A stretch of 64,000 nt of DNA. Source: Felis catus. Its lineage: Eukaryota. The notes under the pieces are model-generated. The model was not told the origin of the DNA and did not search any database. It saw only the letters and a list, made by a program, of their open reading frames with translations. Both the position numbers and the translations under genes were made by a program. This document shows positions 3,725 through 58,191 of the stretch, one piece after another. Location of the stretch: assembly GCF_018350175.1 (NCBI RefSeq), contig NC_058368.1, forward strand, positions 96,288,001 to 96,352,000, read 5' to 3'. Position 1 is the stretch's first letter. Every line of letters begins with the position of its first letter.

Positions 3725-4120
3725 GTATTAGTTTCCCAGAGCTACCATAATAAAGTACCACAAACTGGGTGGCTTTAAAAAACAGATACTCTCTCACAGT
3801 TCTGGAGGCTGAGTTTGAGCTCCAAACAGACAGAGCACCGTTTGCTCTGTCTGAAGGTTCTGGGGGATGATCAGTACAATGCCTTTCCCTTAGCTTCTGG
3901 TGTTGCTGGCAATCCTTGACTTACAAATGCTTCACTCCAATCCCCACTCTTGTCAACACGTGGCATTCTCTCTCTCCATTTCCTCACATGCCTTCTCTGT
4001 GATTATCATCTATCTCTGTGTCTTTTCTCTTCTTACAAGGACACAGTCATATTGCATTAGAAGCCACTCTACTCCAGTATCATCTTACAAATATATCAGT
4101 GGACCTTTACTTTCCTGATA
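3725..4120 (-). mobile_element. MaLR (MLT1B/C-like) solo LTR
   Basis: GTATTAGTTTCCCAGAGCTACCATAATAAAGTACCACAAACTGGGTGGCTT...CTCTCACAGTTCTGGAGGCT, a typical MLT1 end. Confidence 0.85.
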
Positions 4121-4292
4121 GAACCTGATAATCACACTGTATCCTTAGGCTTTTATCTCCATTCATCCTTCCTCAGTGTATAGTGTTCAACATCACACAT
4201 GTAAAACGTGGCTTGATAAAAGTCTTTAAAAACATGTATATGGAGTGATTCAAATTAATTGGAAAAATAAAGAAATTTCCACATGTTACTGA

Positions 4293-4723
4293 ATGTAGGA
4301 GAAGAAAACTTTTCCTTCTTCTCGGTTCTCTGTCTATTCTCTAATTATATGAAGTCCCAAAGATAGGAGGCTCAAAGAAGTGACCGGACAGCCTTTATAC
4401 CCTTTAGATAAAGAAACAATACATTTGTGTAGAATTGACAAAACAAAGGATTTTGGACTTGGGGTAGTAAAAAAGTGAAGAAGTAACAATCTTTTTTATG
4501 CAGTTTTCTTAGCCCTAAATTTCCTATCTCTGGTGATAAGGATGCTTTCTTCCCTCCTGGTATAGGGAGGGTGCCCTCCCATAGGAAATTCATTTCCTGC
4601 TCTCAGAGAGACACTGGAGGGTCAGAATGTCCTTGCACCTGCTGTTTCTTAAATAACTTTAATTCAAAACAATCAGTATGTCAAAGTGGTATTTTTTGAG
4701 GAGGCATATTCTGCCCCCCCTCA
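4293..4723 (-). mobile_element. ERV1-class solo LTR (MER34-like/carnivore LTR)
   Basis: Ends with ATGTCAAAGTGGTATTTTTTGAGGAGGCATATTCTGCCCCCCCTCA; same terminal motifs as the copy at ~49.9-50.4 kb. Confidence 0.7.
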
Positions 4724-5838
4724 GGTTGTGTTCAGTAGGTTCTAACTTTCTAACTCCTGTTACAGCACAGGAGTACCCCATAAATGTATGAGGCAAAAGA
4801 AATCATCACAGCAAGGCCCTGATCTTAAGTCTCAGAAGGCAAGGATAGCAAACAATAATGAGCTTATTTCTAGCCAAATGAGCCTTTTATTACTTACCCT
4901 TAACTTCTGAATATTTCATCAGTGCTTCACTGAGACAGAAATGACACTGTATTATTTTTTTAAATAAGGTATCAGTGAATACGTGGTAATGGTTATTGAA
5001 TCAGAAAATTTGTTCTAAGGAGGGTATAAATAAAAGTTATGGTAAAGAGGCTACAGCACCTTTATCGCACCAGGCTTTCATTCCAAAGAACCAGACTTTT
5101 GATAAATGTGCAGTCTAGTTGTTTTAATAAGATTGAAGTTTGCAGTGGAGGTTAGATTACATCCCTTCAGAGTGGCTCATTAAATTCTACTATCACTTCT
5201 TGTCCATTACCGAACAGTGTCCAGCCTTCATGGGAGAAAAAGGGGGGAAAAGTGTTCTAAGGTTCTTTACATAAAGATACAACTACATTTTATGCTGTGT
5301 CCCTAAACTTTTCCTACTTTTTCAGTAACGTATCTATTTCAGGTACTTATTTTCTTTTTAAGACACAGGTGATATTTACCCAGATCATCAAATTTACCAA
5401 TATTCACTCAGTGTACATTTAGTTATCTTCAAGATCTATGGAAAAGTTATTTTCTGGGCTTGGTTGATTAATGAGGGGAAGTTTCACATTTCCCTATGTT
5501 TGCATTGAGTCCATCAGGAGTTGATGTCATTGTTGCAGCCGATCCCATATGGAGTTACCAGCAGCCTCCTTCCTTAGTATTACCAGACTAAATAGTAATG
5601 TAGTTTTTTGTACATTTGTTTGTAGCTGCTAGTTTCCTGAACACATCATCCTTTGGAAGATCCCATTCTTTTTCACCAGTCTAATAAATTATTTCTCACT
5701 GAATTAAAAAAGTATTTAATTTTTAGTCACCCAAGGAGTGAGATCAGAATAAGCTATTCCTATATTAAAAGGAGGGAAATAAAAGTGACCTCCATCCCCA
5801 GCCAACCGCCCCAAGACAAAGGGAAAGAAATGTCTAAG

Positions 5839-8998: not shown

Positions 8999-9213
8999 TT
9001 TAAAATTTTTTAACGTTTTATTTATTTTTGAGACAGGGAGAGACAGAGCATGAACAGGGGAGGGTCAGAGAGAGGGAGACACAGAATCTGAAACAGGCTC
9101 CAGGCTCTGAGCTGTCAGCACAGAGCCCGACGCGGGGCTCAAACTCACGGAGCACGAGATCATGACCTGAGCCGAAGTCGGCCACTTAACCAACTGAACC
9201 ACACAGGTGCCCC
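8999..9213 (-). mobile_element. Can-SINE inserted in L1
   Basis: SINE consensus; TSD GGTATTTTACTCTTTTT. Confidence 0.97.
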
Positions 9214-16867: not shown

Positions 16868-17083
16868 GTTTTTTTTATTTTTTTAATGTTTGTTTATTTT
16901 TGAGAGAAAGAAAGAGTATGAGTAGGGGAGGGGCAGAGAGAGAGGGAGACACAGAATCTGAAGCAGGCTCTAGGCTCTGAGCTGTAGGCACAGAGCCCGA
17001 CACAGGGCTCGAACCTACGAGCCATGAGATCATGACCTGAGCCAAAGTCAGATGCCCAACCGACTGAGCTACCCAGGTGCCTC
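16868..17083 (-). mobile_element. Can-SINE (felid type)
   Basis: SINE consensus; TSD TCAATAGCC. Confidence 0.97.
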
Positions 17084-19290: not shown

Positions 19291-22200
19291 ATTTCCATAT
19301 CTTAACTGTATTTCTACTTCTATTTAATCTTTTTATTTGTAATTGAAATCTAGTTTATATGTAGTATTATATTTGTTTCAGGTGTTCCAGGTAGTTATTT
19401 GCCTTTTATATACATTATGAAATGCTCACCCCAATAAGTATAGTTACAATCTGTCACCAAAGTTATTACAGTATTGTTGACAATTTTCTCTATGCTGTAC
19501 TTTGCATCACTTTGACTCATTTATATTGTAACTGACAGTTTGTACCTCTTAAACCCATCCCTTCTATCACCTATCTCCCCCAAGCCCTCCCTGCTGGCAA
19601 CCACCAGTTTGTTCTTTGTATGTATCAGCCTGTCTCTGTTTCGTATTGTTTGAGGGCTGGTTGGTTGATTTGTTTCTTTTGTTTATTAGATTCCACACAT
19701 AAGCAAAATTATTTGGTATTTTTTTAATCTGGCTTATTTCACGTAGCATGATACCCTCTGGGTCCATCTATGTTGTCCACAATGGCAAATTTCATTCTTT
19801 TTTTAAAGGAGACTAATTCCCATTGTGTATATATTCCTTATCTTTTCTATCCATTCATCTGCTGATAGACATTTTGATTGCCTTCATATCTTGGAAATTG
19901 TAAACAATGCTGTAGTAAACATAGGAGTGTGAATATTCTTCTAAATTAGCTGTGTATGTTTTCTTTGGGCAAATGCCCACAAGCAGAATTACTGGGTCAT
20001 GTGGAATTTCTATTTTTAATTTTTTGAGCACCCTCCATACTGTATGCCATAGTGGCTGCACCAATTTACATACCCACCATAACACAAATGGGTTCCTTCC
20101 ATTTTTACCACATCCTCAACAATGCTTGTTTTTATTTCTTCTCTTTTTGACACAGGCCATTCAGACAGGTGTCAAGTGACATCTCACTGGGGTTTTGATT
20201 TGCATTTCCCTAATGATTACTGATGTTGACTATCTTTTCAGGTGTTTGTGGCCATTTCTATGTTTCCTTTGAAAAAAAAATATTCAGGTACTCTGTCCAT
20301 TTTTTACTGGATTATTTGGGGATTTTTTTGCTGTAGAGTTGTAGCAGTTCTTTATATACCTTCTTCCATTCAGTGGACTGCCTTTTCATTTTGTTGATAG
20401 TTTACTTCATGCAAAAGCTTTTCAGTTTGAGGTAGTCCCAATTATTAATTTTTGCTTTGTTGCTTTTGCCTGTAAGGAAAGATCCAGAGAAGTACTGTGA
20501 AAAAGATGTAGAAGTCTACTACTTATGTTTTCTTTTAGGTATTTTATCTGTTCACATGTAACATTTAGGACTTTGATCCATTTTGAGTATGATTAAGAAA
20601 ACGGTCCAGTTTTCCGGGTACCATTTATTGAAGAGAATGTCTTTTCCTGATTTTCTACCTTTGTCCCCTGTGCCATGGATAGAATGACCAGAGATGTGAG
20701 ATTATTTTGGGGCTATTTTCCAATGATATATGTGTATTTTTGTTCCAGTACCATCCTATTTTGATACCTAGAGAGCCTACTATTATAGTTCCAAGTCTAG
20801 GATTGTGACACCTCCAGCTTTGTTCCTCTCAGATTGCTTTGGGTAGCCTGGACAGCTTAACATTATTAATTCTTCCATTCCTTGAGCATGAGTATCTTTC
20901 CATTTATTTGTGTCATCTTCAATCCCTTTCATCAGCATTTTATAGATTTCAGAGTACAGTTCTTTGGTCAAATTTATTCTTAGGTATTTTATTCCTTTTG
21001 ATACAACTATAAATGGGATTGTTTTCTGTATACTGATTTGTATAGCTCTTCTGAATTAGTTCATTTGTCCTAATAGTTTTTTGGCAGGTCTGTTTATTTT
21101 CTATATATATTATCATCTGCAGATACAATTTCACTTGTTCCTTACCACTGTGAAAACATTTTTTTTTTCTTGTCTGATTGCTGTGTCTAGGACTTCCAGT
21201 CCTTAAATGAATAAAAGTGGTGAAAGTGGACATCTTTGTTTTGTTCCTGATCTTGGAGGAGATATCTTTAGCATTTCACCATTGAGTATGATGTCCCCTG
21301 TGGGTTTGTCATATATGGTCTTTATTATGTTAAGGGATGTTCCCTCTAAAGCCACTCTATGGAAAGTTTTTATCATGAACAGACAGTGAATTTTGTCAAA
21401 TGCTTTTTTTCTATTGACAAGTTCATATTATGTTTATTATGCATTTTGTTAACGTGGTGTACACATTGATTTGCAAATAATGAACCATTCTTGCAACCTT
21501 GGAATAAGTCCCATGTGATTGTGGTAAACGATCCTTTTAATGTATTGTTAAACTTGACTTGCTGATACTGTGTTGAGGATTTTTGCATCTTAATCGTCAA
21601 GGAGATTAGCCTGTGATATTTTTGTGGTAGAGTTGTCTAGTTTTGGTATCAGGGTCATGCTAGCCTTACAGGATGAATCTGTAAGCATTACTTTGAGCCT
21701 GAGAAGTATAGGTATTAACTCTTCATTAAATATTTGGTAAATCACCTGTGAAGCCATTTGATTCTAGACATTTGTTTGTTGGAAATGTTTTCATTACCAG
21801 GTCAATTTTATTACTAGCAATCAAATTTTTAAGATTTTCTATTTCTTCCTGATTCTCTTCTGGAGCATTTTAGTTTTCTATAAATTGATGCATTTCTTCT
21901 CATGTGTCTAAATTGTTTGCATTTTTTTTTCATAGTACTCTTGTAATCCTTTTGATTAACTTCTCTTTCATTCCTAAGTTTATTTTGTTTTCCTACCCAA
22001 GTTTTAATTTAAATTCCACTTAGTTAACATTTGGTGTAATATTAGTTTCAGGTATAGAATTTAGTGACTTATCACTTATATACAACAGCTGGTTCTCATC
22101 ACAAGTACCCTCCTTACTAACCATCACCTGTTTCACCCATCCTCCCTGCCCACCTCCCTTCTGGTAACCATGAGTTTGTTCCCTAGAGTTAAGAATCTGT

Positions 22201-22341
22201 TTACTGGTCTTCCTTTCTCTTCTTTTACCAACCCTCTGTACACTTGTTCTATTTTTAAATTCCACATATGCGTGGAATCATGGGGTATTTATCTTTCTTT
22301 GACTTATTTCACTTAGCATAATAACTCTGTAGCTCCATCCA

Positions 22342-23080
22342 CATCATTTTTATCTCATTTTTTTGTTAATTTTTGGATGATTATTCGTTTGGGGATGAAT
22401 CCTAAGAGTGCTGGAAGGCACCCCCCCTACAGATAGTGTTAGTATCAGGATGAGTGAGGTGATTAGGGGTGTTTTACTCCATGTTTGTGATAGGGATAAT
22501 GTTGTTGTAGCAGAGCTGTGTATGAGTACTATGAAGGTGGCTAATGTTGCTGTTATATAACCTATATGGACGATTGAGGAGTATGCTAGGATTTTTCAGT
22601 TGTGTTGGGTTGAGTCCCCTTCATCCCCCTATTTGACTGACATGATAGCTATTGTTAGGAGTAGATTGGGATTGCTGGTGGGCAAAATTTGGTAGAGGAC
22701 AGATGATGGTGCAATTTTTTGTCATGTTAATACAATTAGGCCTGAGGATAGGGAGATTCCTTGTTCAACTTCGGGAATTCAGAAGTGAAATGGGGCCAAG
22801 CCCAGTTTTATTGCTAAAGCAGCGGTTATTATAATCGATGCTATGGGGTCGAGACTTTTTTGATATCCTTCATTGTCCTGAATATAGGTTAACGATAATT
22901 CCTATCACTAGGAGTACGGATGTGGTTGCTTGTGTTGGGAAGTATTTTGTGGATACTTCTATGGCTCATTAATTTTTTTATAAGAACGGGGATAATGGCT
23001 AGTATATTTATTTCAAAGCCAATTCAGATTATTAGTGAGAACTTGTTGCTACAATTATGGTTCCTGAGATGACAGTTTCT
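22342..23080 (-). pseudogene. MT-ND2: NUMT: decayed mitochondrial ND2 fragment
   Basis: Minus strand in the vertebrate mitochondrial code gives [109 protein letters not shown]; frameshifts and an internal deletion. Confidence 0.97.
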
Positions 23081-25467
23081 GTGGAACTCTGTGTCTGTTT
23101 TTGTGCCAGTACCATACTGTCTTGATGACTACAGCTTTGTAACGTAACTTGATGTCTGGAATTGTGATGCCTCCAGCTTTGCTTTTCTTCTCCAAGATTG
23201 CTTTGGTTATTTGTGGTCTTTTGTGATTCCATACAAATTTTAGGATTGTATGGTCTCTGTACAAAATGCTGATGGTTTTTAACAGGAATTGCACTAACTG
23301 TGTAGACTGCTTTGGGTATTTTAAACATTTTAACAATATTTGTTCTTCCAATTTGTGACCATGGAATATTTTCCATTTCTTTTATCAGCGTTTTAAAAAG
23401 TATAGACATTTACTTCTTTGGTTAGGTTTATTCCTGGGTATCTTAAGATTTTTGGTGCAACTGTAAATGGGATCAATTCCTTTATTTTTCTGTCTGCTGC
23501 TCCATTATTTGTGTATAGAAATGCAAAAGAGTTCTGTGGGTTGATTTGGCATTCTGTGATTTTACTGAATTCATGTATCAGTTGTATAAATTTTTCTGGT
23601 GGTGTCTTTTGGTTTCCCATATAGGGTATCACGTCATTTACAAATACTGAAAGTCTCACTTCTTCCTTGCCAGTTTAGATTCCTTTTATTACTTTGTATT
23701 GTCTGATGGCTATGGCTAGGACTTCCAATACAAAGTTAAATAAAAACAGTGAAAATGGACATCCCTGTCTTGTTCCTGACCATACAGGAGAACCTCTCAG
23801 GGTTGCCCCATTTATGATGATATTTGCTGTGGGTTTTTTGTATATGGCTTTTATGATGCTGAGGATTTTTTTTCTTATCAAGAAAGGATGCTGTATTTTG
23901 TCTAATACTTTTTCTGCATCTATTGACAGGATCATATGGTTTCTATCCTTTCTTTTATTCATGTGGTGTATCACAATGATTGATTTGGGAATAATGAAAC
24001 ACCCTTGGATTTATTCCAGCCCAGAAATAAATCTCACTGGATCATGGTGAATGATTCTTTTAATGTACTGTTGCATTCGGTTTGGTACTATCTTTTTGAG
24101 GATATCTGCATCCATTTTCATGAGAGATATTGACCTGTAATTCTCCTTTTTAGTGGAGTTTTTGTCTGGTTTTCATATCATGATAATTCAGGCCTCATAG
24201 AATGTGTTTGGAACATTTCCTTCCATTTCTATGTTTTTGGAATAATTCAAGAAGAGTAAGTATTAACTGATTTAAGTGTTGGTAGAATTCATCATTGAAG
24301 CCATCTGGCCCTGCACTTTGGTTTGTTGAGAAAGTTCTGATTATTTATTCAATTTCTTTGCTGGTTATCAATATGTTCAATTTTTCTCTTTCTTACTGCT
24401 TCAGTTGTGATCATTTATCTTTCTGGATATTTATCCATTTCTCCCAGGTTGTCCAATTTGTTGTCATATAGTTTTTCATAACATTCTTTTAGAATTGTTT
24501 ATATTTTTGTGGTGTTGGTTATTTCTCATCTCTCCTTCGTGTTTTTATCTATTTGGGTCCTTTATCTTTTCTTTTTCAAATTCTGCCTAGGAGGTTATCA
24601 GTTTTATTAATTTTTTCCAAGAAACAGTTCCTGGTTTCATTGATCTGTTCTATTGTTTTTTAGTTTCTCTATCATTTATTTTTGTTCTAATCTTTATTAT
24701 TTCCCTTCTTTCTGGCTTTAGGCTTCATTTGCTGTTTCTTTTATAGTTCCTTTAGGTGTTAAGGACAGGTTGTTAGAGATTGTTTGTTTTTGTTTTTTTT
24801 TTTACTTCTTGAGGTAGTTCTGTATTGCTATATACTTTCCTCTTAAAACTACTTTTGCTGCAACCCAAAGGTTTGGGACTGTGGTGTTTTCATTTGCTTC
24901 CATATATAGTTTTACTTCTTTTTTGATTTCCTGGTTGACCCATTCATTGTTTAGTAGTGCACTGTTTGACTGCCATGTATTTATAGTCCTTCCAGATTTC
25001 TTCTTGTGGTTGGCTTCAGTTTCATAGCATTGTGATCTCATGCATGGTACGATTTCAATCTTTTTGAACGTTTTGATGATTCGTGACCTAGTATGTGATC
25101 GATTCTGGAGAATGTCCCATGTACATTTTAAAAGAATGTGTATTCTGCTTCATGATGAAAGTTCTGAATATGTCTGTCATGCCCATCTGGTCCAGGAAGT
25201 CATTCAAAACTATTGTTTCCTTGTTGATTTTCTGCTTAGTGCTTACATTAATGGACACATCATCTATGTTAAATTCCCCTGGAATATTGTATTATTATCA
25301 GTAAGTTTCTTTGTGTTTGTTATTGTTTTATATATTTGGCTGCCCACATGTCGGATTCATAAATATTTACAACTGTTAGAACTTCTTGTTGGATGGTTCC
25401 CTTTATTATTATATATTGTCCATCGTCATCTCTTGTTACAGATTTTGGTTTAAAATCTAGGTTGTCT

Positions 25468-25675
25468 GTGGCCCCTGGGTAGCTCAGTTGATTGTATGAC
25501 TCTTGGTCTTGACCCAGGACATGATCTCAGGGCCATGAGATCAAGCCCTGTGTCGGGCTCTGTGCTGGGTGTAGAGCCTGCTTAAGATTCTTTCTTTCTT
25601 TCTCCCTCTGTCCCTCCCTCTCTCTCCCTCCCTCCATAGGTTGTGTTCTTTTTCTCTCTCAAATAGAGTAGAATA
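25468..25675 (+). mobile_element. Older Can-SINE in nested L1
   Basis: GCCCCTGGGTAGCTCAGTTG...CATGATCTCAGG, (CT)n; diverged TSD A(A/G)AATCTA..TT.TCT. Confidence 0.9.
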
Positions 25676-28600
25676 GAATCTATTTTATCTGATATAAGTA
25701 TTATGACTCTGGCTTTGTTTTGATGTCCATTTGCAGGATAAATGTTTCTTATCCCCTCACTTTCTATCTGAAAGTGCCCTGAAGTCTAACATCATTCTCT
25801 TAAAGGCAGCATATCAATAGGTCTTGGGTTTTTGTTTTGTTTTGTTTGGGTTTTTTTTTTTTTGAATCGATTCTGACATCCTAAGTCTTCATGAGAGGGT
25901 TTAGTCCATTTACATTCTGAGTAATTATGTGTGTGTGTGTGTATATGTATGTGTGTAACAAAAGTGCCATTGTGTTACTTGTTTTGTCACAATTTCTGGA
26001 GATTTTCCCTGATCCTTTCTTGCCTTTGTCCCTTTGGTCTTTCCTTTTCATTCAAAGAGTTCCTTTTAATATTATTTCTTGCAGTGTTGGTTTAGTGGTC
26101 ATGTACTCCTTTAGTTTTTGTTTGGGAAACTCTTAATCTCTACTTCTTTTCTGATTACTAGCCTTGCTGGATAGTGTATTCTTGGCTGCAGATTTTGTAC
26201 CATTCAGCATGTTGAATATATCATGCCACTACCTTCTGACTTGCCAAGTTTCTGTGGAGGGATCTATAGCTAGCCTTATTGTTCTTCCCTTTTAAGTTAG
26301 AGACTGCTTTTAAGATTTTTTTCTTTCTCACTACATTTTGCAAATCTAATTACAATAAGTCTTGGTGTTGTCCTGCTTTTGTTGATTTTGATGGGAGTTC
26401 TCTGTTTCCCCTGGATTTGTGTCTGTTTCCTTCTCTAGATTAGGAAAGCTTTTAACTTTTATTTCTTCAAATAAATTTTTGGCCCCCTTCTCTCTCTTCT
26501 TCTTCTTCTGGGACTCCTATAATACAAATGTTATTATGTTTGGTGAAGTCATTGAGTTCCTGAAGGCTATTTTTGTGTTCCATAATTCTTCTTTGTCTCT
26601 TTTGTTCACCTATGTAATCTTCTATTTCATTTATGCATTCCTCTGTTTTAACCATACTTATGTACACTGCATCCAGTCTGTTTCAAATCTCACTTACTTT
26701 ATTTTTCACTTCTGAATTTTTAAAATCCTTTACCTATGCCATAAGGGCCTCCCTTAAGACTTCCATTCTCTTCTCAAACCCAGTGAGTGTCCTTACAATT
26801 ATGGCTTTAACTCTCCATCAGGCATATTACTTATCTCTCTTTCAATTAGATCTCTGGCTGTAACCTTATCTTGTTTCATGCACCATGAATGCCACAGTAT
26901 TAGCACTTTGACTAAGTCTCTGTCTTCTTTTCTGTGTTAGAAAAACCTGTTATGTTTCCTGCTCCTAAGAGTAAGGGCTTCATCATTTCTGATATTATTT
27001 TAATCTTTTCTCTTTTTTTCCTAATCAATTTTGTAAACATTTTGCAATATTTTATTAATTGTGTAAGTATTTTAAAGTCTCAGCTATTAGTTTCATTGAT
27101 CTTCTGAAATTTCTATAGGCTTTATTTCTACTAGGATATTTCTTTTATTTCCTTTATTCTACTAACTTTGGATATTATTTGTTCTTCTTTTTTCCAATTC
27201 TTTTAGGTGTAATGTTAGATTGTGTATTTGAAAATTTTCTTATTTCCTGAGGCAAGCCCGAATCCCCATAAACTTCCCTCTTAGAACTCTGATAATGTCA
27301 AAGGGTTGGAACTGATGTTTCCATTTTCATTTGTGTTAAGGTATTGAGTTCCTCTTTGATTCTTTCATTGATACATTGGTTTCTTGATGCATGTTGTTTA
27401 GCTTCCATGTATTAGTATTTTTTTTCTTAAAATTGATTTCTAGTTCCATACTATTATAGTTTGAAATTATACAGACATGATTTCAAACTTCTGAAATTTA
27501 CTGAGACTTCTTTTGTGGCCTGGATTGTGTCTACATCACAGGGAAATGTTTCCTGTGGTTTGCTGTTTTGGGATGGAACATTCCGTATATAGGTGTTAAA
27601 GTACATCTGTCCTAATGTGTGGCTCAAAGCTACTTTTTTTTTCCTTATTGATTTTCTTTCTCGATGGTCTATGCATTGATGTGAGGTGTTAAAGTCCTTT
27701 CCTATTGTTGTATTATTGCAATGTTTCCCTTTATGACTGTTAATATGTGATTTATATATTTAGAAGCTATTATAGTGGGTTCACAGGTATTTACCATTGT
27801 ATGTTCTGGTTGCATTGATAACTTTATCATTATGGAATGCCCTTCTTTATGTCCTCTTAGAGTCTATTTAAAATCTAGTCTGATATAAGTAATGCTAGCC
27901 AATCTTTTGTTTTGTTTTCCTTCCATTTTCATGGAATACTTCTTCCATTACTTTACTTTTAGTCTGTATGTCTTTAGGTCTGTAGCAAATCTCTTGTAGA
28001 CAGCACATAGATGAGCCTTGTTCTTTCATCCATTCATTAATCTTATGTCTTTTCATTGGAGCACATAGTCCACTTACATTTAAAATAATTATTGATAGGT
28101 ATTACTTATTCCCATTTTGTTGATCGACTGTTTTCATAGTTCTCTTTTCCTTTCTTCTTCTACTGATCTACTTCCCTTGAGATAGTCTCTTTGGCATAAT
28201 GTTTAGATTCCTTTATTTTTTGTGTATCTATTTTAGATTTTTCATTTGTGGTATCCATGACATTCATATGTAACATCCTATGTATATAGTAGTGTTTATT
28301 AAGTGGATGGTAGCTTAAGTAAGAACACATTTTAAAAGCACATTTTTATTTGCAAATCAATGTTTTATGATGTGATGTTATTTTTTTACATCTTTTAAAT
28401 TGTGTATCCCTTGACTAATTTTTATAGATGTAATTGATTTTACTACTGTCATCTTTTAAACTTCATAGTAGCTTTAAAAATGATTTATCTACTACCTTTA
28501 CTGTGTGTATGCTTTTACAAGTGAAATTTTTTTCCTTTCATAATTTTTCTTCTAATTATGGCTTTTTCTTTTCCGCTTAAAAGATCCCCTTTAATATTTT

Positions 28601-30979: not shown

Positions 30980-33900
30980 AAAGTGGGGAAAGATGGCTGA
31001 GTAGGAGGATCCTGACCTCACCTCCTCCCATGGAAACACCAAAGCAACAACTACATGTATTGCAACTCATTCTGAAATTGACCTCTTCCACAGCTACAGG
31101 TATAAGGGAAAGGCCACAGAGAGAAGCACAGGATGGGCTGAGACACAGTTGGGAACCACACTCCTGGAGCAGGAATGTACACACAGGAGAGAGATCACAG
31201 GTGTGGAGGAATAAGAGGGATCAAGCCTCACACCTGGGAAACCACACAAAGAAGATGAGCCTCTCCCCCTGCCCCCCCCCCCCACCTGATGTGTGGCTTT
31301 CAAAATCAGCTGGGCTTACCTCCAGGAACATCAGAGGGTTACAGAACACTGACTAGCTGCTCATAAGGAGCCAGTGCTTTATCATTCGGTCCAAGACTCA
31401 GCTCCAATGCAGCAGTTTATAACGCACCTGAGTTACACAAGACAGAGATTTATTGACTAATTTTAGAATGTGTGCCGGAGAGACATGTATCAGCAGTTTA
31501 CCCTGAGGATGGAAGAGCTGGCAGGTACTATTTGTATTGCCCTTTTTCAGCGTAGCTACCTGGAAACTTACTAGGGCCTGTTCTGACATTCTCCATTTAC
31601 CTTACTAGCACTCTTTGCCCCATTCAGGCAGGGGCCCCTGCAAAACAACTGCCAACTTACCACACATCCCATATGTCTCAGTTATGACTATTGTCCTCTC
31701 GGGGTGACCAGCCCAATGCTTCACTCAGTGGCCAGCACCAGAGCCCCTAGAGAATCATTCCAGCTCCAGGGATGGGGAAGATAGTCCTATCTACCAACAT
31801 GGCCCCAGTAGTGAAATTCATGCCTCTCAGGCAGCTGTACCAGGTGCAAGTCTTGCCTGCCAGTGCACACAGGGTGGTCTGGTGAGTCACTGCTGACAGC
31901 CAGGATGAGCCTGCCTACCAGCATTCACACAGCCACTGGGGACATCTAGAGCATTTGGTTCTGGTGACCCGAGGGGATTGCTAACCAGGAACCACAAGAC
32001 ACCTACCTAAGGCCACACAGACAGAGACCCAATGAGGAGTAGAAGAATATGTTGCAAATGAAAGAACAAAACTTCAGAAGAAGAGCTTACAGAAATAGAT
32101 ATAAGCAATCTACCTGATAAAGAGTTCAAAGTAATGGCCATAAAGCTACTAAAACGTGAGAGAAGACTGAATGAGAACTTCAACAAAGAGAAAATAGAAA
32201 AAGTATCAGATCTGAAAGACACCATAACTGAAATATACAATATACTACAAGGAATCAACAGCAGATAAGAGGACACAGAAGAATACAGCTGGAAGACAGG
32301 GTCCTAGAAAGCAACTACCCTGAACAAAAAGAAAGCCAAATTAAAAATAAAAGAAATGGGTTAAGGGACAAATTCAAGCATATTAAGGGTCCTAGAAGGG
32401 AAAGGGGCAGAAGACACATGTGAAGGAAGGATATCTGAATACTTCCCCACCTGGGGAAAAATCAGACATCCAGGAAGCACAAAGAGCCCAAAACAAGATG
32501 AACCTAAGTGGCACACAACAACACATAGTAATTACAATGTTGAAAATTTAAAGACATAATCTTAAAAGCAGCAAGAGAAAAGGAAACAGTTACATTCATT
32601 TCAGCTAAAACTTTATAGGCCACTGGGAATAGCATGACATATTCAAAGTGCTGAAAGAAAAATGAAAAACTTACTACCAAGAACACTCTAACTTCAATTC
32701 ATTCAGAATTGAAGGAGAAACAGTTTCCCAGACAAAAGTTTATGAGATGTTAAAGAGACTTCTTTGAGTAGAGAAGAAAATGCCATAGCTAGAAGTAAAT
32801 TTCACTGGGTAAAGCAAACATGGAGTAATTGTATATCAGTCACTTATATCTACAAACGTAGTCAAATGAAACAATACATGAAGAGGTAAAGTATGACATG
32901 TACAGAAAACATGGATAAGGAAGTGAAAGTACAGTGTTTTAGAATGTATTTGAACTTCAGCAACCATCAAGTTAATATAGACAGACTGCTAAATACATAG
33001 GATATTATATGAAACTCATGGCAACCACAAACCCAACACCTACAGTAGATACACAGCAATCATGTAAATCATATCACAAGGGAAAACAACACGAGAAGAA
33101 AAAAGGGAGCAGACCCATAAAAATAACAGAAAAATCCCCATGTAAAAATGGCAATAAATACATAAATATCAACAATTATTTTAAATGTACATGGATTACA
33201 TGCTCTAAAAGATATAGAATGACTGAATATATTCAAAAAACAAAACCAATGATGCTGCCTATAAGGGACTTAATTCAGACCTAAAAACACATACAGACTG
33301 AAAGTGAAGGTATGGGACAACGTATTTCATGCAGTGTTGTGGGGCGGGGGGAGGTTGGGGTAGCAATATTCATACCAGACAAAATCTACTTCAAAATAAA
33401 GACTGTCAAAAGAGACAAAGAGGGCATGACATAATGATAAAAGGTTCAATCCAACAATAGGGTATAACAGTGGTAAATATCTATGCATCCAACATTGGAG
33501 CACCTAAATACATAAAGCAAATATTAACAAATTTAGACGGAAGAATTTTTTAGTATGTATACACTAAGAGCAAAGTAGCAGAAAGAGAATTTGCAAAACC
33601 AAACACATTTAAAATTGCATCAAAAAGAAGTCAATACCTGGGAATAAATTTAATCAAAGAGGTAAAAAAAACTGGTACTCTGAAAACAGTAAGACTTTGA
33701 TGAAAGAAATTGAAGACAACACAAATAAATGGAAAGATAAACCATGCGCCTGGATTTTAAGAATGATGTTACAATGTCCATACTATCAAAAGCAATTGAC
33801 AGATTCAATGCTGTCCCTACCAAAATACTAATAGCATTTTTCACAGAACTGTAACAAATAATTCTACAACTTGTATTGAACCACAACAGATGCCAAATAG

Positions 33901-42422: not shown

Positions 42423-42621
42423 AGGAAAAAATCAAAACTGAGAGTTGGTTCTTTGAAAACAAAAACAAAATTGATAAATGTTTATCCAGAGTTATCACAA
42501 CAAAACAAAACAAAAAAAACAAAAAAGGAGGACTCAAATAAAAGTAGAAATAAAAGTTAAAACTGACACCCAGAAACAGAAATACAAATAGTAGAAGAGA
42601 CTCGGTAAAAATTATAAATCA

Positions 42622-42820
42622 GGGGCACCTGGGTGGCTCAGTAAGTGTCCAAATTTACCTCAGGTCATGATCTCAGGGTTTGTGAGTCTGATCCCCACAT
42701 TGGGCTCTGTGCTGACAGCGCACAGCCTAGAGCTTGCTTCACATTCTGTGTCTCCTTCTTTCTCTGCCCCTCCCCTGCTCGTCCTCTCTCCGTCTCTCAA
42801 AATCAAATAATCATTAAAAA
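42622..42820 (+). mobile_element. Can-SINE in L1
   Basis: TSD AAAATT(A/T)TAAATCA. Confidence 0.95.
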
Positions 42821-43151
42821 TTTTAAATCAACAAATTGGAAAACCTAGCAGAAATTGATAAATTCCTAGAAACATATCTTTAAAAACTGAATCAGGAGAA
42901 AATAGAAAACCTAGAAAGACCAATTACTAGTAATGAAATAAAATCAGTGATCAAAAGCTCCCAATGAACACAAGTCCAGGACCAGATGGCTTCACATATT
43001 AATTTTATCAAAATTTAAAGAAGAGCTAATATATATCCTTGCCAGAATATTCCAAAAATTTGAGGAAGAAACTTTTCCCAATTTCTATTATGAGCCTGCA
43101 TTACCCTGAAACCATAACCAGACAAAGACACTATAAAAAAAGTTAAAATTA

Positions 43152-43358
43152 GGGGCGCCTGGGTGGCAGTCGGTTCAGCGTCTGACTTCGGCTCAGGTCA
43201 TGATCTCAGGGCTCGTGGGTTCGAGCCCCACATCAGGCTCTGTGCTGACAGCTCAGAGCCTGGAGCCTCTTCAGATTCTGTGCCTCCCTCTCTCTCTGAC
43301 CCTGACCCACTTGCATTCTGTCTCTCTCTCTCAAAAATAAATAAACATTAAAAAAAAA
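43152..43358 (+). mobile_element. Can-SINE in L1
   Basis: TSD AAAGTTAAAATTA. Confidence 0.96.
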
Positions 43359-43372
43359 AAGTTAAAATTACA

Positions 43373-43790
43373 GGAGCCCCTGGGTGATTCAGTTCGTTAA
43401 GTTCCAGACTTTGGCTCAGGTTCTTTGAAAACATAAACAAAATTGATAAATGTTTATCCAGAATTATCAAAACAAAAAACAAAAACAAAAAAAAGGAAGA
43501 CTCAAATAAAGTTAAAACTGACACCCAGAAACACAAATACAAATATTAAAAGAGACTCTGTAAAAATTATAAATCAGGGGCACCTGGGTGGCTCAGTCAT
43601 TTAAGTGTCCAGCTTTGGCTCAGGTCATGATCTCATGGTTTGTGAGTTTGAGCCCTGTACTGGGCTCTGTGCTGACAGCTTAGAGCCTGGAGTCTGCTTC
43701 AGGTTCTGTGTCTCCCCCTCTCACTGCTCCTCCCCTGCTCACAGTTTGTCTCTATCTCTCAAAAATAAATAAAACATTAAAAAAAATTAA
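43373..43790 (+). mobile_element. Can-SINE split by a duplicated L1/SINE segment
   Basis: SINE head at 43373-43420, copy of ~42447-42640, then SINE body to 43790; TSD TTAAAATTACAG encloses the whole unit. Confidence 0.85.
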
Positions 43791-46589
43791 AATTACAGAC
43801 TAATATCCCTGATGAACATAGTTACAAAAATCCTCCACAAAATATTAGCAAGCCAAATCCAACAATACATTAAGAGGATCGTTCACCACCATCACCTGCG
43901 TTTTATTCAGGGGATGCAAGGATGGCTCAATATCTGTAAATCAATTAACATATATATCACATTAATAAAAAAAAACAAAAATCACATGATTATCTCAACA
44001 AATGGAAAAAAGGCATATGACAAAATTAAACATCGATTTGTGATAAAAAAAAAAATCTCAACAGAGTGGGATTAGAGGGAACATAGCTCAACATAATAAA
44101 GGCCATACATGAAAAACCCACAGCTAACATTGTATTCAATGGTGAAAAGCTAAAGATTTTTCTTTAAGATTAGGAACAAGGCAAAGTTGTCCACTCTTAC
44201 TACTTTTATTCTGCATAGTACTAGAAGTCCTGGACACAGCAGTAAGACCAGAAATGAAATAAAAGTGTCCAAATTGATAAGGAAGAAGTTATACTGTTAC
44301 TCTTTGTAGTGACATATTCCATATAGAAAATCCTGAAGACTCCATCAGAAAACTAAACATATAAATAATTTCAGTTAGGGTATAGGAATCAATAATCAAT
44401 ATACAGCATCTGGTACGTTTTTACACACTAAAAACAAAGTAGCAAAAAGAGAAAATAAGAAAACAGTTCCATTTACAATTGCATCATAAAAAAATAAAAT
44501 ACCTAGGAATAAATTTAACAAAGGAGATGAAAGTCCTATATTCTGAAAATTATAAAACCTGGATAAATCAAGTCAGAGATGGCACAAATAAATGAAAAAA
44601 TATATACCACTAATAAGAATATTATTAAAAAACCTATTCCACCGAAACCATTCAGTGCAGTCCCTAACATGATACCAATAGTATTTTTCGCAGACCTAAA
44701 CCAAAAAATCCTAAAATTTATAGGGAAGGACAAAACACCCTGAACAGCTAAAGCAATCTTGAGATAAAACAACAACAACAACAACAAAACAAAACAAAAC
44801 AAAAAAACTAGAGAGCTATCACAATCTCAGAACTCAAACTATTTTATAAAGGTGTAGCAATCAAAACAGTATGGTACTATACAAAGTAGACATGTGGATG
44901 AGTGGAACAGAATAGAGAACCCAGAAATAATCCCATGCTTATATGGTCACTTAATCTTCAATAAAGGAGGCAGGAATCTACTATAGGAAAAGGCAGTCTT
45001 TAATAAATGGTTATGGGAAAACTGGACAGCTACATACAAAAGAATGAAACTGGACCATTTTCTTACACTACAGACAAAAATAAACCCAAATGTATTAAAG
45101 ACCTGTATTAGGACCTAAAACCATAAAACTCCTAGAAGAAAATATAAACAGTAATCTCTTGAACATTGATCTGAATCTGTATCTTCAGGCAAGGGAAACA
45201 AAAGCAAAAATAAACTATTAGGACTACATCAAACCAAAAAGTTTTGCAAAGCAAAGGTAACCATCAACAAAATGAAAAGGCAGCCTACTGAATGGAAGAT
45301 GTTTGAAGATGATTTAGCTGATAGGATGTTAATTTCCAAAATATATAAAGTCCTCCTACAACTCAAAAAAAGAAAAGATTAAAAAATGGGCAGAGGACGA
45401 GAATACATATATTTCCAAAGACTTACAGATGGGCAACAGACACGTGAAAAGATGCTCAACATCGCTAATCATCAGAGAAATGCAAATCAAAACTACAATT
45501 GAGTATCACTCTTTTGGCTAGTGTCAAAAAGACAATAAATGACAAGTGGTGGCAAGGATGTGGAGAAAAGGGGACCCTCATGCACTGTTGGCAGGAATAT
45601 AAAACTAGGGCAGCCAGTATGGAAAACTGTAGGAGGATCCTCAAAAAAGTAAAAATAGAAATACCATACGACCCAGTAATTTCACTCCTGGTTATCTGCC
45701 ATAAGAAAATGGAAATGCCAATAAAAAAAATGAAAATACTAATTCAAAATATATATGGATCTATGCAGTCCTATGTTTACTGCAACATTACTTACTATTT
45801 GCAATAGCCACAATATGAAAGCAACCTAAGTGTCCAAATGGATAAAGAAAATGTGGTATACCAAATGAAATATCACTTATTCATAGAAATAGATATAATT
45901 TTGCCAGTTCCAGCATCACAGACTGACTTAGAGGATATTATGCTAAGTGAAATAAATGAGACAGAAAAAGTCAGAGACAGTGGGATTTGTACACGTAAAA
46001 AGCAAAACCCATAACAAAAATAGAAATAGGCTGATAATTATGGACAACAAAGTAGTGGTTTCCAGAAGGGGAGTCTGTGGGGGGATAGGTGAAATACATA
46101 GAAGAGATTAAAAGGTACAAACTTGCAGTTATGAAATAAATAATTCATGAGCATCTAAAGTATAGCATGGGAAATGCAGTCAACAATATTATAATAATTT
46201 TATATGGTGACAGATGGTAACTAGATTTACAGTGATCATTTTATAATGGATATAATTGTTGAATCACTATGTTTTTGAAATATTGTACATCAACTATATT
46301 TGAATTAAAAATTTAAAAATACAAATAGAAAAGGAGAAGCAGTCTTTATATTAAAGAGAAAGGATAACCCTAAAACTTATCTTTTGAGCTGGAAAAGTGC
46401 TATCTATTCAGAGAACTTGATAGAAGATCATGAGATCTTTATGAGCAAAGGTTTAATGTTTTCATTCCCAATACATTTACATTGGTGTACGCAATGTTTA
46501 CTATAGAATAGACTCTCAATAAATATATATTTCAAATAAAACCTTGTTACATCTACTATGGAACTTCCCTTCTGAAAATATTTAACCAG

Positions 46590-57979: not shown

Positions 57980-58191
57980 TTTTTTTTTAATGTTTATTTA
58001 TTTTTGAGACAGAGAGAGACAGAGCATGAACAGGGGAGGGTCTGAGAGAGAGGGAGACACAGAATCTGAAACAGGCTCCGGGCTCCGAGCTGTCAGCACA
58101 GAGCCTGATGCGGGGCTCAAACCCACGGACCGCGAGATCATGACCTGGGCCGAAGTCAGACGCTCAACCGACTGAGCCACCCAGGCGCCCC
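57980..58191 (-). mobile_element. Can-SINE (young felid type)
   Basis: TSD AATAAAAAGCTTTTC. Confidence 0.97.

Follow-up and report, generated by a model that had tools for sequence, protein, structure and literature searches.

A decayed fragment of the mitochondrial ND2 gene lies on the minus strand at positions 22350-23076 of the stretch of Felis catus DNA analysed here (64 kb, referred to as the window). This NUMT is 727 bp long and comprises ND2 codons 12-275 and the first base of codon 276. An earlier note had placed about 740 bp of ND2 at 22342-23080; the mitochondrial ND2 identity was upheld, and the extent was corrected to about 22350-23076. The NUMT interrupts an L1, the host L1, which is itself nested in an older L1 (B). 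The features of the locus are the following.

19330..21975, minus strand: 3′ part of the older L1 (B), target of the host L1 insertion (paralog map, ORF2 divergence)
21961..21977, plus strand: candidate TSD of the host L1, 3′ copy, 15/17 identical to 27008-27024
21978..22348, minus strand: 3′ arm of the host L1, with ORF2 codons 1244-1275, 3′ UTR and decayed tail (paralogs, dog ORF2p)
22342..22348, plus strand: CATCATT, claimed as microhomology and best read as L1 ORF2 codons 1244-1246 only
22350..23076, minus strand: the NUMT, ND2 codons 12-275, decayed (frameshift-aware alignment, base composition)
22354..22547, minus strand: 3′ piece of the NUMT, codons 212-274, 194 bp, with the length and mitochondrial span of Fcat_numt9
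22547..22548, minus strand: joint of the 57-nt deletion, codons 193-211, with the same gap in the published table (mt 4490 to 4548)
22548..23076, minus strand: 5′ piece of the NUMT, codons 12-192, 529 bp, with the length and mitochondrial span of Fcat_numt10
23077..23090, plus strand: right junction zone, with five L1-like bases and a 6-mer that reverse-complements the expected L1 (five paralogs)
23091..27007, minus strand: 5′ arm of the host L1, from ORF2 codon 895 to about codon 6, then the ORF1/5′ region (PDB ORF2p, tblastn with dog ORF2p, paralogs)
about 25469-25670: SINE-like insert in the 5′ arm of the host L1 (paralog map)
27008..27024, plus strand: candidate TSD of the host L1, 5′ copy, where the older L1 resumes

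Translation of the minus strand of 22340-23095 with the vertebrate mitochondrial code yielded pieces of ND2 in all three frames. The longest open piece matched solved ND2 chains (E 7e-30) and Pfam PF00361, and its best matches among 440 proteins were felid ND2 (84-88%), followed by those of Prionodon and the viverrids. In a frameshift-aware alignment that starts at codon 12 (position 23076), 186/237 residues were identical to felid ND2 (Panthera or Catopuma) and 185/232 to that of Prionodon linsang. The same alignment showed a disabled reading frame, with 7 frameshift events, 2 stops and an in-frame internal deletion of 57 nt, in agreement with the old capture that had been proposed from the many indels. 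Third-position base counts (A118, C66, T35, G15) are mitochondrial in make-up, and Met is encoded by ATA 21 times and by ATG once. Of 213 first- and second-position sites of invariant ND2 residues, 17 were changed (JC 0.084, CI 0.049-0.136). With its homology to mtDNA, its nuclear surroundings and its broken frame, the fragment is a NUMT without function that decayed neutrally after capture. A search of the 64-kb window found no second ND2 piece, and neither Rfam nor ARAGORN reported a mitochondrial tRNA at the site.

Some observations lie to the side of these results. Among the NUMT's own changes (22354-23076) transitions were in excess (16/213, against 4/288 for transversions), and their share was higher than in the host L1 (46:25); this could be chance or could reflect changes from the mitochondrial donor. 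ARAGORN called tRNAs at 16993-17078, 43157-43240 and 58101-58186, and since the SINE at 9000-9213 has copies that overlap the first and the second of these, all three are probably tRNA-derived SINE heads. Direct repeats of SINE and L1 sequence (42447-42820 and 43419-43783, 82.5%) are found inside L1 copy C (42447-43829), possibly as an old local duplication or as the result of several SINE insertions. SINE and L1 subfamily names follow general usage rather than assignment with a repeat library.

Mapping on the paralogous L1s of the window assigned both flanks of the NUMT to one near full-length antisense L1 (about 21978-27007), with the flanking L1 motifs at 22333-22347 and 23090-23113. The earlier note was therefore right about the positions of the two motifs, about the single L1 and about the absence of some 950-1000 bp of it. 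When full-length dog ORF2p was used as a reference, the 5′ arm stopped at ORF2 codon 895 and the 3′ arm began at the last base of codon 1244, so that codons 896-1244 are missing. In coding terms this amounts to about 1.03-1.05 kb, a value independent of the length of the 3′ UTR; four decayed paralogous L1s of the window hold 951-1015 bases between the equivalents of 22348 and 23090. Residues 841-895 of the PDB L1 ORF2p matched the 5′ arm (E 4e-19). Insertion of the host L1 interrupted L1 B, which picks up again near 27000, at the paralog coordinate where it had stopped, and continues beyond 29000. The candidate TSD match was equalled by 4/300 shuffles and 2/195 other L1 windows, and is thus modest taken alone; the exact resumption of L1 B carries the weight. 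Changed invariant ORF2 sites amounted to 22.4% in L1 B and 14.4% in the host L1, the order that nesting demands (p 0.001). One of the five other L1 copies measured, copy E, has lost ORF2 codons 133-740 (about 1.8 kb, at 33535-33554) with no filler in their place. Between the ORF2 start and ORF1 (25928-26040), beside a TG microsatellite, the host L1 also lacks about 500 bp relative to paralog A, and this shortfall may be a subfamily difference in the spacer or a second deletion.

At the left junction, L1 matches run through 22348 and ND2 starts at 22350, with one T unexplained. It had been proposed that CATCATT (22342-22348) is shared by L1 and ND2 and that the insertion used it as microhomology, and this proposal did not survive. 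The heptamer is in frame with L1 ORF2 codons 1244-1246, directly before W1247 at 22339-22341 (dog ORF2p). Its match to ND2 exists only at the protein level, as Met-Met, and against crown-cat ND2. To be common to both sequences at the DNA level, it would need a donor with ATG at both codon 277 and codon 278, in a NUMT where ATG occurs once. Met277 was present in 11/11 felid proteins and in 0/32 other carnivoran proteins, yet the donor lies outside the crown cats, as discussed below. The published match of Fcat_numt9 to cat mtDNA ends at ND2 codon 274, short of CATCATT (PMC10764098, rows compared), and the red panda ND2 DNA given in PMC12491944 reads, by eye, Ile-Ile-Ile at the equivalent codons. 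The joint shows no sign of the 2 or more bases common to flank and donor that such an insertion requires. Another microhomology considered for the left side, between L1 about 12 nt past the break and ND2 codons 271-275, was rejected because it would have retained the intervening 12 nt and because the simple reading leaves a single base unexplained. The end of ND2 at 22352-22364 does resemble the L1 expected about 12 nt past the left breakpoint (12/13 bases, against one paralog), a resemblance judged to be chance.

At the right junction ND2 stops at 23076, and L1 resumes 14 nt later. The intervening zone perhaps contains a 6-bp micro-inversion of L1, which may come from end processing or from chance. 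Both NUMT joints look blunt or near-blunt, with at most 1 shared base as judged from protein-level comparison with feliform ND2, and a 1-nt overlap may exist at either joint. No TSD was visible at the NUMT ends, as the earlier note had reported. Neither poly(A) nor long homology between donor and flanks was found in the sequence or the junction alignments, which is the picture expected of end-joining filler.

The locus is real and has been catalogued. Of the sequencing runs listed for 22250-23200, 20/24 contained 98-99% of 89 words sampled from the NUMT and its flanks; 14 of these 20 are marked as possible sources, and the other 6 come from 3 studies. Given that few words were missing, those across both NUMT junctions are probably among the ones present. 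An assembly chimera or mitochondrial contamination has a practically negligible probability: the copy carries stops and frameshifts and is only 78-80% identical to cat mtDNA, the words occur in 6 runs that are not marked as possible sources, and the same anatomy appears in a published annotation. Neither of two signs of an artefact was observed: the published identities to cat mtDNA (77.6-79.9%) are far from near identity, and the words are not missing from the runs. That annotation is Supplementary Table S3 of Uvizl et al. (PMC10764098), of which rows 1-23 of the 446 in the Felis catus sheet were compared. It includes Fcat_numt10 (529 bp, mt 3948-4490, span 543 nt, 77.6% identical to cat mtDNA) and Fcat_numt9 (194 bp, mt 4548-4736, span 189 nt, 79.9%), which are adjacent minus-strand pieces of ND2, with the nearest other rows 2.5 and 5.9 Mb away. 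The two lengths, the two spans and the 57-nt gap, all five numbers, equal those of the NUMT described here (total 723 bp), so that this locus, or its ortholog, is almost certainly Fcat_numt9 plus Fcat_numt10. What these rows provide is coordinates and identity; in the parts of the paper compared there is no mention of the L1 host, the kilobase missing from it, the junctions or the placement of the donor. A literature search carried out mostly without subscription papers, the cat NUMT survey cited in PMC2820518 being one of these, returned no description of the L1 context of the locus.

The identity of the donor was approached through protein residues and topology tests. Four ND2 positions, 23, 37, 228 and 249, separate felids from almost every other carnivoran; at these four, and also at 56, 124 and 224, the NUMT carries the non-felid residue. 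In a free ML tree (47 of 120 proteins) the NUMT fell outside Felidae, but support was weak (55-60) and the backbone partly wrong; topology tests on a fixed backbone were used instead. The AU tests included 27 of the 120 proteins, with the backbone topology taken from general knowledge and the junction codons masked. Placement in Felinae or Pantherinae was rejected (p 0.0004), as were stem Carnivora and stem Caniformia (p 0.017) and, marginally, stem Feliformia including Nandinia (p 0.043). The best placement was on the stem of Felidae plus Prionodon (p 0.89), but the tests did not distinguish it from three others: stem Felidae (0.25), a position as sister to Prionodon (0.26) and the base of the non-Nandinia feliforms (0.41). 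Taken together, the topology tests place the donor outside the crown cats and favour an early feliform. The NUMT had been described as a fossil of an ancestral carnivore mtDNA; it does appear ancestral, and early feliform is the more exact term, with both stem Carnivora and crown cats rejected. The same results, and the single ND2 piece in the window, set it apart from the large tandem cat Numt. Scanning metagenome contigs with the carnivoran ND2 alignment gave 73 candidate stretches and, from these, one locus, which was 36% identical, did not look mammalian and was not used.

At a neutral rate of 2-2.5e-9 per year, the divergence at invariant residues corresponds to an age of about 34-42 million years (range 20-68). 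The hyena split is dated at 33.36 Mya in Table S9 of PMC10764098. In hyena rows 6-354 of the same compilation no two-piece ND2 entry with these ends was found; a single row, Hhya_numt337 (mt 3985-4442, 82.0%), overlaps the NUMT span and may be the same locus. The hyena rows thus weakly fit a capture after that split. Of 243 dog NUMTs, 8 were reported to be common to cat (10.1101/2024.09.13.612826).

The relative age of the host L1 and the NUMT bears on how they came together. Changed invariant sites amounted to 71/493 in the host L1 (14.4%, CI 11.4-17.8) and 17/200 in the NUMT (8.5%, CI 5.0-13.3), with a Fisher p of 0.043, which rose to 0.055 when the sites were chosen more strictly. Choosing sites by their invariance in present-day L1s may exaggerate the change in old L1 copies. 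Transversions at these sites were 25/493 and 2/200, respectively. Frameshifts were not rarer in the NUMT (6 in 232 codons, 2.6 per 100) than in the host L1 (16 in 851, 1.9 per 100). By the substitutions the host L1 is probably the older of the two; the density of frameshifts does not show it.

In the explanation that we consider best, a dead, near full-length L1 would already have been fixed at the site, as the observed nesting and candidate TSD and the probably greater age of the L1 suggest. In an early feliform ancestor, after the caniform split and before the crown cats, the L1 ORF2 may have suffered a double-strand break (alternatively two breaks close together, or resection) that was closed by end joining with a piece of mtDNA of about 0.8 kb as filler. 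About 1.0 kb of L1 would have been lost in the same repair, which would have used no 7-nt microhomology and left one unexplained T at the left joint and a scrambled 14-nt zone at the right one. Neutral decay would have followed, changing about 8% of invariant sites and leaving 6-7 frameshifts and the 57-nt deletion. End joining is the described route of NUMT capture, and 65% of the junctions in primates were blunt or 1-nt (PMC2567098); NUMTs occur at large deletions in human genomes (PMC9630118). We give even chances to the part of this explanation in which capture and the loss of about 1 kb of L1 were one repair event. One event is the most parsimonious count, and the NUMT ends lie within 1-14 nt of the L1 breakpoints on both sides. 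Against it, no deletion at any of 90 primate NUMT insertions exceeded 317 bp, and 49 of these insertions removed nothing (text and Table S1 of PMC2567098), in a set drawn from alignment nets where large deletions may be missed. The loss without filler in the neighbouring copy E and the NUMT's own later deletion also count against it, since they indicate that later deletions do occur here.

The same anatomy would result from two steps: capture of a longer NUMT that cost the target few bases or none, and afterwards a deletion spanning one of the junctions, which removed about 1 kb of L1 together with some of the NUMT. On the base rates found this is about as likely as one event, and with all the evidence considered we regard it as a serious possibility of somewhat less than even probability. 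Typical NUMT insertions delete from zero to a few bases (PMC2567098), and one filler-free kb-scale ORF2 deletion was counted over some 5,000 aligned codons of the other five L1 copies. Scaled to the age of the NUMT, this gives a chance of a few percent, a rough estimate from a single event and of the same order as the bound of <3.3% derived from 0/90. The internal deletion of the NUMT points in the same direction. However, two events are required at one spot, no leftover ND2 piece was found elsewhere in the window, and the deletion rate rests on that one event. The filler could also have been copied from an older nuclear NUMT elsewhere, by templated insertion or duplication, rather than from the mitochondrion. 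Templated filler is an established outcome of repair. The cat genome has long, old NUMTs at 78-83% identity that could have served as donors (PMC10764098, rows compared), but no flank of another locus accompanies the NUMT and at most 1/90 recent primate NUMTs fitted this route (PMC2567098). We consider it improbable.

A different origin would bring the L1 and the NUMT in together, if the L1 reverse transcriptase had switched template twice, from L1 RNA to ND2 mRNA and then, about 1 kb further upstream, back to the same L1 RNA. Chimeras that arose by L1 template switching, for example U6/L1, carry a foreign RNA-sense sequence collinear with L1 inside one TSD. The locus shares these properties: ND2 sense and L1 sense are on the same strand, the ND2 piece is wholly within one mRNA, about 0.79 kb was gained for about 1.0 kb lost, and a single candidate TSD encloses the whole composite. 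The density of frameshifts, not lower in the NUMT than in the L1, is also as this origin predicts. In contrast to U6/L1, the insert has L1 on both sides, and that L1 is apparently older than the insert, as the substitutions and transversions given above indicate. Agreement in orientation has an even chance of arising at random, a piece of 0.8 kb will often lie inside one gene, and the literature search returned no paper on such a case. We hold two template switches to be very improbable.

Returning to capture by end joining, the NUMT resembles ordinary NUMTs captured by this route (as described in PMC2567098, PMC2820518 and PMC9630118) in being a short piece of mtDNA with no poly(A), no flanking mitochondrial homology and joints that are blunt or nearly so. 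Like them it was dead on arrival and lies in DNA rich in repeats. It differs in the missing L1 of about 1 kb, compared with the maximum target loss of 317 bp among the primate cases of PMC2567098. The 7.9-kb tandem cat Numt (Lopez 1994) and the Panthera Numt (Kim 2006) are also nuclear copies of felid mtDNA. As summarised in 10.1101/2022.04.04.487049 and PMC2820518, they are long, occur in tandem or in multiple copies, and date to about 1.8 and 3 million years ago, whereas here there is one 0.73-kb piece with a donor outside the crown cats. None of the marks of those families, a multi-kb unit, tandem copies or a recent crown-cat donor, was found.

Only the double template switch would surprise a specialist. 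If true, it would mean that a NUMT derived from RNA had been fixed in the germline within an L1 bounded by a TSD, and no carnivoran would have the L1 without the NUMT; on balance the evidence speaks against it. Should orthologs reveal that capture and loss of 1 kb took place in one step, the locus would be an example beyond the size range reported for primate NUMT insertions, and would slightly qualify the idea that NUMTs restrict deletion at breaks. In itself it is one of the 446 catalogued cat NUMT pieces (PMC10764098), an ordinary nuclear fossil of early feliform mtDNA that can also serve as a presence/absence marker.
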